Shown piece after piece: positions 10,516 through 10,645 of a stretch of DNA of 64,000 nucleotides. The number at the start of each line of letters is the position of its first letter. The stretch's first letter is position 1. The stretch comes from an uncultured Clostridia bacterium. Lineage in GTDB: Bacteria > Bacillota > Clostridia > TANB77 > CAG-508. Both the position numbers and the translations under genes were made by a program. The notes beneath the pieces were generated by a model. The model was not told the DNA's origin. It did not search any database and saw nothing but the letters and a program-made list of their open reading frames with translations. Where the stretch lies: assembly GCA_948678575.1 (NCBI GenBank), contig CAPPGO010000004.1, positions 44,895 through 108,894 on the forward strand, read 5' to 3'.

Positions 10516-10612
10516 AATAAAAAGAAGATACCCCATACTTTAAAGTATGGGGATTACTTCGCACTCGTACGTTTATTATAGTAACATACTAAGTTTTGAT
10601 ATGATATAATAC
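10516..10612 (-). ncRNA. predicted tracrRNA (anti-repeat + terminator hairpin)
   Basis: Plus strand 10580-10610 AGTAACATACTAAGTTTTGATATGATATAAT matches 28/31 positions of the repeat (21-nt identical 3' block). The minus-strand RNA is therefore complementary to crRNA repeats and ends in hairpin CCCCATACTTT/AAAGTATGGGG plus U-tract (UAUCUUCUUUUUAUUU). Confidence 0.65.
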
Positions 10613-10616
10613 AATT

Positions 10617-10645
10617 ATTATAATATGTATTTTTACATATGTCAA
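10617..10645 (-). promoter_or_regulatory. predicted tracrRNA promoter (consensus TTGACA-17-TATAAT on minus strand)
   Basis: Plus-strand TGTCAA at 10640-10645 and ATTATA at 10617-10622 are reverse complements of the -35/-10 hexamers; predicted TSS lies at the start of the anti-repeat. Confidence 0.45.

Follow-up and report, generated by a model that had tools for sequence, protein, structure and literature searches.

Co-processing by RNase III of the CRISPR RNA (crRNA) and the trans-activating crRNA (tracrRNA) is part of the established model of type II systems. The Streptococcus pyogenes Cas9 is a much larger enzyme (1368 aa) than the one considered here and its locus includes csn2; in Neisseria meningitidis (Nme), the tracrRNA gene is not known to precede cas9 on the cas9 strand, and its promoter comes in two forms. 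Zhang et al. reportedly found in 2013 that the Nme crRNAs start from promoters within each repeat and need no processing. In types II-A and II-C, most anti-repeats are situated upstream of cas9; the array of S. pyogenes is co-directional with the cas operon, whereas those of Nme and Campylobacter jejuni (Cje) are transcribed in the opposite direction, and the rule that derives the direction of transcription from the position of the degenerate repeat fails for both of the latter (PMC3737331). In Geobacillus stearothermophilus, the source of GeoCas9, experiments placed the tracrRNA upstream of cas9 and showed transcription of the array to run against that of the cas genes (PMC5681539). Here we analyze a stretch of 64,000 nt from an uncultured Clostridia bacterium (contig CAPPGO010000004.1, positions 44,895 to 108,894; hereafter the window), in which an earlier note, made from the sequence alone, had placed a tracrRNA gene with its own promoter and terminator immediately upstream of cas9. 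Genomic context, pairing with the array repeats, conservation at 34 loci, covariation, the strand bias of G·U pairs and the GeoCas9 precedent all bear this proposal out, and from these comparisons of sequence we put the probability that the region is the tracrRNA gene of a type II-C CRISPR-Cas9 system at about 0.9.

A predicted tracrRNA gene upstream of cas9

The gene occupies part of the 353-nt intergenic gap between the cas9 start codon (ATG at 10447) and the end of the upstream open reading frame (ORF) at 10801. It is headed, on the minus strand, by a -35 box that matches the consensus (TTGACA, 10640-10645) and, 17 nt past it, a -10 box (TATAAT, 10617-10622). This promoter, TTGACA-17-TATAAT at 10645-10617, is exactly the one that the earlier note had read; it is the sole 12/12 promoter match within 4800-11300 and the only exact TTGACA-N17-TATAAT in the 64-kb window, where 0.07 would be expected. 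Promoter geometry places the predicted start of the RNA at A10610 or G10612, 7-9 nt past the -10 box. The anti-repeat that follows (10575-10610, minus strand, 36 nt) is predicted to pair with the plus-strand crRNA repeat of the CRISPR array, which comprises, at 5000-5959 on the plus strand, 15 identical 36-nt repeats (GTTATAGTTCCATATTAAGTTTTGATATGATATAAT) recurring every 66 nt with 30-nt spacers. Read on the plus strand, positions 10590-10610 reproduce the repeat's final 21 nt, while 10580-10589 agree with the repeat at 7 of 10 positions; these two blocks had been reported together as a 31-nt anti-repeat, and both are real, but the full element is 36 nt long with 32 identical positions. Specifically, there are three mismatches in the 35 nt of 10576-10610, position 10575 adds a G·U pair, and the overall identity to the repeat is 32/36 (89%), in direct orientation relative to the array repeats. 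When the window was searched for the 35-nt sequence with up to three mismatches, only the 15 repeats and the anti-repeat were recovered, against 0.00 expected from 100 shuffles.

The anti-repeat is separated from the 3' portion of the RNA by a 22-nt linker, AAACGUACGAGUGCGAAGUAAU (10553-10574, minus strand), which lies at the 'nexus' position and contains a conserved box, GAGUGCGAAGU. The gap of about 25 nt noted previously is thus present in slightly shorter form, but no stable stem-loop forms there. The GAAG of the linker (10560-10557) is the 5' strand of an outer helix, and the 3' half of the anti-repeat has its complement in the linker segment AAACGUACGAG. Next comes a 22-nt palindrome, CCCCATACTTTAAAGTATGGGG (10552-10531, minus strand), detected as a terminator-like hairpin; the perfect 11-bp GC-capped stem attributed to it folds as 9 bp closed by a 4-nt loop (CCCCAUACU-UUAA-AGUAUGGGG). 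The sequence after the hairpin is the tail TATCTTCTTTTTATTT, which over 10515-10530 (minus strand, UAUCUUCUUUUUAUUU) provides the outer-helix strand CUUC (10527-10524), pairing with GAAG around the hairpin, and then a U-run (10523-10519, extending to 10515) that is the likely site of termination. The U-run ends, at 10519-10515, 67-71 nt ahead of the cas9 ATG, close to the 70 nt given for the U-tract before, except that the CUUC part of that tract belongs to the conserved outer helix. The predicted RNA, from 10610 to about 10515-10519, measures 92-96 nt and lies on the same strand as cas9, in agreement with the earlier figure of about 95 nt, and its fold (-25.9 kcal/mol) has a z-score of -4.6 relative to shuffled versions. 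In the computed structure the GC hairpin is terminator stem and 3' structural module in one.

Conservation across related loci

For comparison, 38 related loci with Cas9 proteins 36-86% identical to that of the window were fetched by scanning genome contigs, by looking up exact Cas9 homologues (48-86% identical) and by scanning a metagenome; homologues at 50-70% Cas9 identity number in the hundreds. Counts of features upstream of cas9 are based on 34 of the 38, as the DNA of L026 and L035 stops short and duplicates of the L031 type contribute nothing new; for L007 and L010 the upstream regions were covered. The tracrRNA unit is found upstream of cas9, on the cas9 strand, in 34 of 34 loci. Its -35 box is TTGACA throughout (TTGACT in three loci) and is followed by exactly 17 nt of unconserved spacer and a TAnnnT box; the anti-repeat, AAUAA, a GAGUGCGAAGU-like box, the GC-rich hairpin and AUCUUCUU then follow in this order. 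A covariance model built on eight related loci was used to search 27 loci and returned one match per locus upstream of cas9, scoring 27-114 bits, compared with at most 38 bits for the loci's own CRISPR repeats; the exceptions are the most distant loci L003, L033 and L032, whose 27-34 bits fall inside the range reached by repeats elsewhere.

The 3' module is paired in 98.2% of alignment cells and shows compensatory changes in 10 of 14 pairs, with a covariation score of 0.456 as opposed to 0.145 after shuffling and 0.05-0.13 when the pairing partners were slid. Within the module, the GC hairpin has compensatory changes in 8 of 10 modelled pairs and the outer helix is 100% paired, with exchanges of G-C for A-U. 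The outer helix is present in all tracrRNAs that were folded (24 loci) or aligned (20 loci), with GAAG/CUUC replaced by AAAG/CUUU in the more distant ones. Judged by this pattern of conservation, the tail is structural as well as part of the terminator. The repeat and anti-repeat also co-vary: in the 12 loci with arrays, matched changes occur at crRNA positions 7 and 11-22, and a G7-to-C change in the repeat of L015 is compensated in its own anti-repeat. By contrast with these changing pairs, the unpaired positions opposite crRNA U9 and C/U10, which make up a 2x2 internal loop, are unchanged in all 12.

The crRNA:tracrRNA duplex and the assignment of strands

In the computational duplex fold that the earlier note had put forward as a check, the anti-repeat and repeat cofold at -58.7 kcal/mol. 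Of the 36 positions, 34 are paired, 32 of them as Watson-Crick and two as G·U pairs, and the exception is the 2x2 internal loop opposite crRNA U9 and C10. The duplex is more stable in the proposed orientation than with the strands swapped (-40.1 and -36.1 kcal/mol, respectively). Moreover, across the 12 loci there are 23 G·U pairs in the proposed orientation against two in the swapped one, the remainder turning into A·C mismatches, and this asymmetry assigns the tracrRNA to the minus strand and the crRNAs to the plus strand. On the plus strand the array repeat reads GTTATAGTTCC...TGATATAAT, with a start that resembles other Cas9 repeats and an end of the form TGnTATAAT. Every repeat thus ends in an extended -10 box (TGATATAAT), from which crRNA transcription would run on the plus strand, against the direction of the cas genes, and a promoter of its own is probable for every spacer, after the pattern of N. 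meningitidis and similar type II-C systems. Within the limits of such sequence comparisons, the placement of the tracrRNA on the minus strand and of the crRNAs on the plus strand can be considered fixed, and the reading direction predicted for the array sets the side on which a protospacer adjacent motif (PAM) should be sought.

The array carries a degenerate terminal repeat (plus strand, approximately 4933-4970) at the end far from the cas genes, from which the usual rule would predict the wrong direction of transcription. This degenerate copy was considered as an alternative anti-repeat and rejected: it has many mismatches, lacks a promoter and a terminator, and lies in the leader of the neighboring hydrolase gene. 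A separate observation concerns the DNA of the anti-repeat, which retains the extended -10 box TGATATAAT on the plus strand (10602-10610), facing the -10 box of the tracrRNA on the minus strand (10622-10617) with no more than 6 bp between them; at this distance the two promoters would exclude each other. The last T of the box in the anti-repeat is mutated in several relatives (L002, L003, L004, L018 and L027).

Setting of the locus

The cas genes are encoded on the minus strand in the order cas9, cas1, cas2. The cas9 gene (7274-10447) encodes a type II-C Cas9 of 1057 aa that matches TIGR01865 (E = 7e-238, NCBIfam) and contains HNH and RuvC domains (Pfam) together with a weak match to the CjCas9 PI-CTD domain; cas1 (6369-7271) is of type II, NMENI subtype (cas1_NMENI; TIGR03639, E = 2e-89), and cas2 (6056-6376) belongs to TIGR01573 (E = 3e-25). 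The array starts at 5959, 96 nt past the end of cas2 at 6056, with no ORF between them. Because the locus consists of cas9, cas1 and cas2 only, with neither csn2 nor cas4 found among these genes and the array, the system is type II-C.

Against the solved structures in the PDB, the best full-length matches of the window's Cas9 are 8uza, 8jtj and 9ar4 (E = 4e-243 to 4e-245), followed by a second tier with 8hnt and 6jdq (about 1e-209 to 4e-212); BlCas9, which the table of matches names, also ranks behind the top three. The table carries no organism names for 8uza, 8jtj, 9ar4 and 6jdq, and we take the first three to be GeoCas9 and the last to be Nme1Cas9 from their entry codes only. By its sequence, the window's Cas9 is a compact enzyme akin to the Nme, Geo and Cje Cas9s. 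The DNA of the host has 22-30% GC and encodes a sporulation sigma factor, and the contigs nearest to it in sequence carry the label uncultured Clostridium or Clostridia. This Cas9 is represented only by metagenomic entries, among them the window's own sequence from an ENA assembly, and none of the papers in the library searched for the repeat and tracrRNA sequences describes the system.

Comparison with characterized guide RNAs

The GeoCas9 tracrRNA is the closest characterized relative, having in common with the window's RNA its position, the geometry of the duplex and a nested 3' hairpin. In both, the duplex consists of 8 bp, a 2x2 U·U/C·U loop and then a continuous helix, and the published Geo single-guide RNA (sgRNA) shares with the window GUyAUAGUUCC at the start of the repeat and GUUACUAURAUAA at the end of the anti-repeat. 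The native Geo repeat also ends in TGGTATAAT. At the 3' side, a terminal GC hairpin is enclosed in both RNAs by an outer helix made with the 3' tail, after which comes AUC(U)UCUU or AUCCUU. Outside the foot of the duplex and the tail, however, the sequences are unrelated. The Geo tracrRNA extends about 98 nt past the loop, forms three stem-loops and requires at least 91 nt for good activity, whereas the window's RNA has just 56-60 nt past the anti-repeat, and in the window and its closer relatives the position of stem-loop 1 is taken by 5-6 variable nucleotides around which only a 2-bp AC/GU closure is possible. Stem-loop 1 is present in distant relatives, as GGUA..UACC in L002, L004 and L032-L034 and as AUUGAGUAAUCAAU in L016-L018, L027 and L030.

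The likeness to N. meningitidis comprises the transcription of crRNAs opposite to the cas operon (PMC3737331) and the duplex foot, GUUGUAGCUCC / GUUGCUACAAUAAGG, in which U9·U and C10·U are unpaired. The Nme tracrRNA differs in having a substantial stem-loop 1 (GGCCGUCUGAAAAGAUGUGCC), and the Nme enzyme, if 6jdq is what we take it to be, scores lower against the window's Cas9 (about 1e-209, compared with about 1e-243 to 1e-245 for the top three structures). With S. pyogenes (type II-A) the window's RNA shares its presumed function and general plan, consisting of an anti-repeat, the linker AAUAA(G/A), 3' hairpins and a terminator. In contrast, the S. pyogenes tracrRNA has another strand relation to cas9, with an array co-directional with the cas operon (PMC3737331), and contains a defined nexus hairpin; the Rfam tracrRNA family is not matched by the window.

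Predicted function and guide design

The features described above suggest how the guide might be made and used. RNA polymerase would start at about A10610 on the minus strand, from the perfect sigma-70-type promoter, and stop at the U-run at about 10519-10515, yielding an RNA of 92-96 nt, the first 36 nt of which (the anti-repeat) are predicted to pair with the repeat part of the plus-strand crRNAs. By analogy with established type II biology, the promoter TGATATAAT that ends each repeat would direct transcription to start inside the next spacer. The resulting duplex would be near-perfect, its fixed 2x2 loop facing crRNA positions 9-10 just as it does in the guides of GeoCas9 and NmeCas9, and RNase III may trim its 26-bp perfect stretch (crRNA positions 11-36). 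Cas9 would then be expected to bind the spacer-proximal foot of the duplex with its 2x2 loop and the 3' module, in which the GC hairpin, as folded in silico, is nested in the GAAG/CUUC outer helix and doubles as the intrinsic terminator. Given a promoter of its own downstream of this unit, cas9 could be expressed independently of the tracrRNA.

The notion that repeat and tracrRNA together define an sgRNA holds up at the level of prediction: joining them gives a 92-nt scaffold, GUUAUAGUUCCAUAUU-GAAA-AGUAUGUUACUAUAAUAAACGUACGAGUGCGAAGUAAUCCCCAUACUUUAAAGUAUGGGGUAUCUUCUUUUU, for an uncharacterized Cas9 of 1057 aa, and this scaffold folds with a GeoCas9-like duplex and nested 3' hairpin. Folded side by side with the published GeoCas9 scaffold, the design is 92 nt compared with 118 nt and lacks stem-loop 1, and the shorter length would be useful where cargo size matters. 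The locus adds nothing conceptually to type II-C biology; it appears to harbor an ordinary, well-supported tracrRNA gene whose value is mainly practical.

Weighing the evidence and the alternatives

Several observations count against the assignment or limit its reach. Promoter-like hexamers are common in this DNA of 26% GC (59 found, 52 expected), and because they are so frequent the consensus promoter match is weak when taken alone; it is conservation that carries the argument. No stable hairpin exists where other Cas9 guide RNAs have the nexus or stem-loop 1. The Rfam tracrRNA model gave no match in 4500-11500 even at E values up to 10, and at gathering thresholds the whole window matched no tracrRNA or CRISPR family of note, the only hit being a tRNA at 15298-15369; this model presumably covers Streptococcus-type RNAs only, in which case the missing match says nothing about function. 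The alignment behind the covariation of the 3' module was fitted to the model, and one of its rows is a false match. No credible protospacer was found when the whole array was compared by blastn with 50,697 phage records, when IMG/VR was scanned for exact matches to the 24 nt at the 3' end of spacers 12, 13 and 2, or when the window itself was scanned with up to seven mismatches, so that the crRNA strand lacks an independent check through the position of the PAM. Finally, the start site, the 3' end and the processing of the tracrRNA are all ones that we infer.

Among other explanations, the element could be mainly the 5' leader of the cas9 mRNA, transcribed from the strong upstream promoter through to cas9, with the hairpin acting as an attenuator that sets the level of Cas9. 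A small RNA would then arise only through partial termination or processing, which is compatible with tracrRNA function, and the question becomes which product dominates. The relatives provide some encouragement for this idea: in L002, L004, L016, L017 and L018 the cas9 ATG lies 16-24 nt past the tail, with no space for a separate promoter, and in L027-L030 and L034 the gap is about 25-30 nt, again with no promoter between, from which it follows that in these relatives cas9 could be expressed only by read-through of the tracrRNA terminator. In addition, L008, L009, L011, L013 and L019-L024 have a poor U-run after CUUC (CUUCUUGUAUA and similar), suggestive of leaky termination. In the window itself, however, the outer helix runs straight into a good U-run (UUUUUAUUU), and there is a separate near-consensus cas9 promoter, TTGACA-17-TACAAT with the TG of an extended -10 box (10506-10478, minus strand), situated between the tracrRNA terminator and the AAGGAGG ribosome-binding site. 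This promoter is conserved in the closer relatives, which keep TTTTGACAA there, and the covariation of the anti-repeat is not explained by a pure leader or attenuator role; we therefore regard a predominantly leader function as improbable.

That the tracrRNA is instead transcribed from the plus strand, starting near 10576, with the array read from the minus strand together with the cas operon, seems very unlikely. Promoter-like sites of the requisite orientation, TTGATA-17-TATAAT (10596-10624) and GTAACA-18-TATAAT with TG (10581-10610), do overlap the element, but they would start transcription within or past the anti-repeat, not ahead of it. The degenerate terminal repeat at the cas-distal end would also favor minus-strand transcription of the array under the usual rule, which does not hold for Nme and Cje (PMC3737331). 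Swapping the strands would convert the 23 G·U pairs to A·C mismatches and gain only two, at the cost in duplex energy given above, and past the element the plus strand shows neither a terminator nor a stable fold (-12 kcal/mol over 131 nt), while the conserved promoter, hairpin and tail are all on the cas9 strand. It is hardly credible that a rearrangement merely left a CRISPR repeat astray here to decay without function, accompanied by a promoter and a hairpin that arose by chance in AT-rich DNA. In favor of this are the 89% identity and direct orientation of the copy relative to the array repeats and the abundance of promoter-like hexamers, yet the whole unit keeps its place in each of the 34 loci with upstream DNA, even where Cas9 identity falls to 36%. 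The mismatches in the anti-repeat fall constantly at the same two positions, its differences from the repeat are biased towards G·U, and the hairpin has compensatory changes across loci. The tracrRNA gene on the cas9 strand is the reading we retain.

A possible self-masking fold of the linker

When single strands were folded with RNAalifold, the 3' half of the anti-repeat paired with the linker segment AAACGUACGAG, and compensatory changes were found in this pairing. As a model of the Cas9-bound state the fold was rejected, since the same bases pair with the crRNA, and it was kept as a possible fold of the free RNA. Eight lineages were compared (the window at 10553-10594, minus strand, and L001, L008, L009, L011, L015, L019 and L037), and in each the anti-repeat gains more from folding with the linker of its own locus than with those of the others; of 40,320 permutations just 2, one of them the true arrangement, attain the observed total energy. 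As the linker and the anti-repeat co-vary between loci in this manner, it can be argued that the linker fold is under selection. The linker also resembles the middle of the crRNA repeat, and in L037 UAAACUUUGA is common to both exactly.

One tentative interpretation, which we consider possible but rather less than even odds, is that the tracrRNA of this clade has lost the nexus stem-loop and acquired a repeat-mimicking linker that folds back on the 3' half of the anti-repeat. If so, the free tracrRNA would be self-masked, leaving only its 5' 17-18 nt accessible as a toehold, and the linker would need to be displaced by the arriving crRNA repeat; such a fold could protect the RNA or gate the loading of the guide. 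The pairing does not keep one register at every locus (L037 departs from it) and contributes little energy (-4 to -10 kcal/mol), and for these reasons self-masking is offered as a hypothesis and not as a finding.

Neighboring features in the window

Upstream of the tracrRNA gene, a palindromic GC hairpin (GAAACCCCGTAAGGGGTTTC, 10793-10812) lies at the end of an unannotated ORF of 137 aa (10801-11214) for which no family match was found; the hairpin is likely to be a terminator that insulates the tracrRNA promoter from upstream transcription. Farther upstream, a sigK-like gene (11289-11990, minus strand) is apparently frameshifted: an ATG near 11987 opens MVLLSIESFINFLINAVIGVGYIR and then runs into a stop, and the remainder (GNNNLFPEPLSSEEEK...) continues in another frame from about 11918, so that the gene is either a pseudogene or the product of an assembly error. 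An element interrupting sigK ('skin'-like) had been suspected, as the sigK ORF lacks its first 38 residues, and was rejected on two grounds: the N-terminal part is directly upstream in the other frame, and the neighboring ORF of 487 aa is RecN/SMC-like, not a recombinase. Elsewhere in the window, a tandem repeat at 21285-21759, with 2.6 copies of a 189-nt unit at 90% identity, is probably located within the coding region for a repetitive protein.

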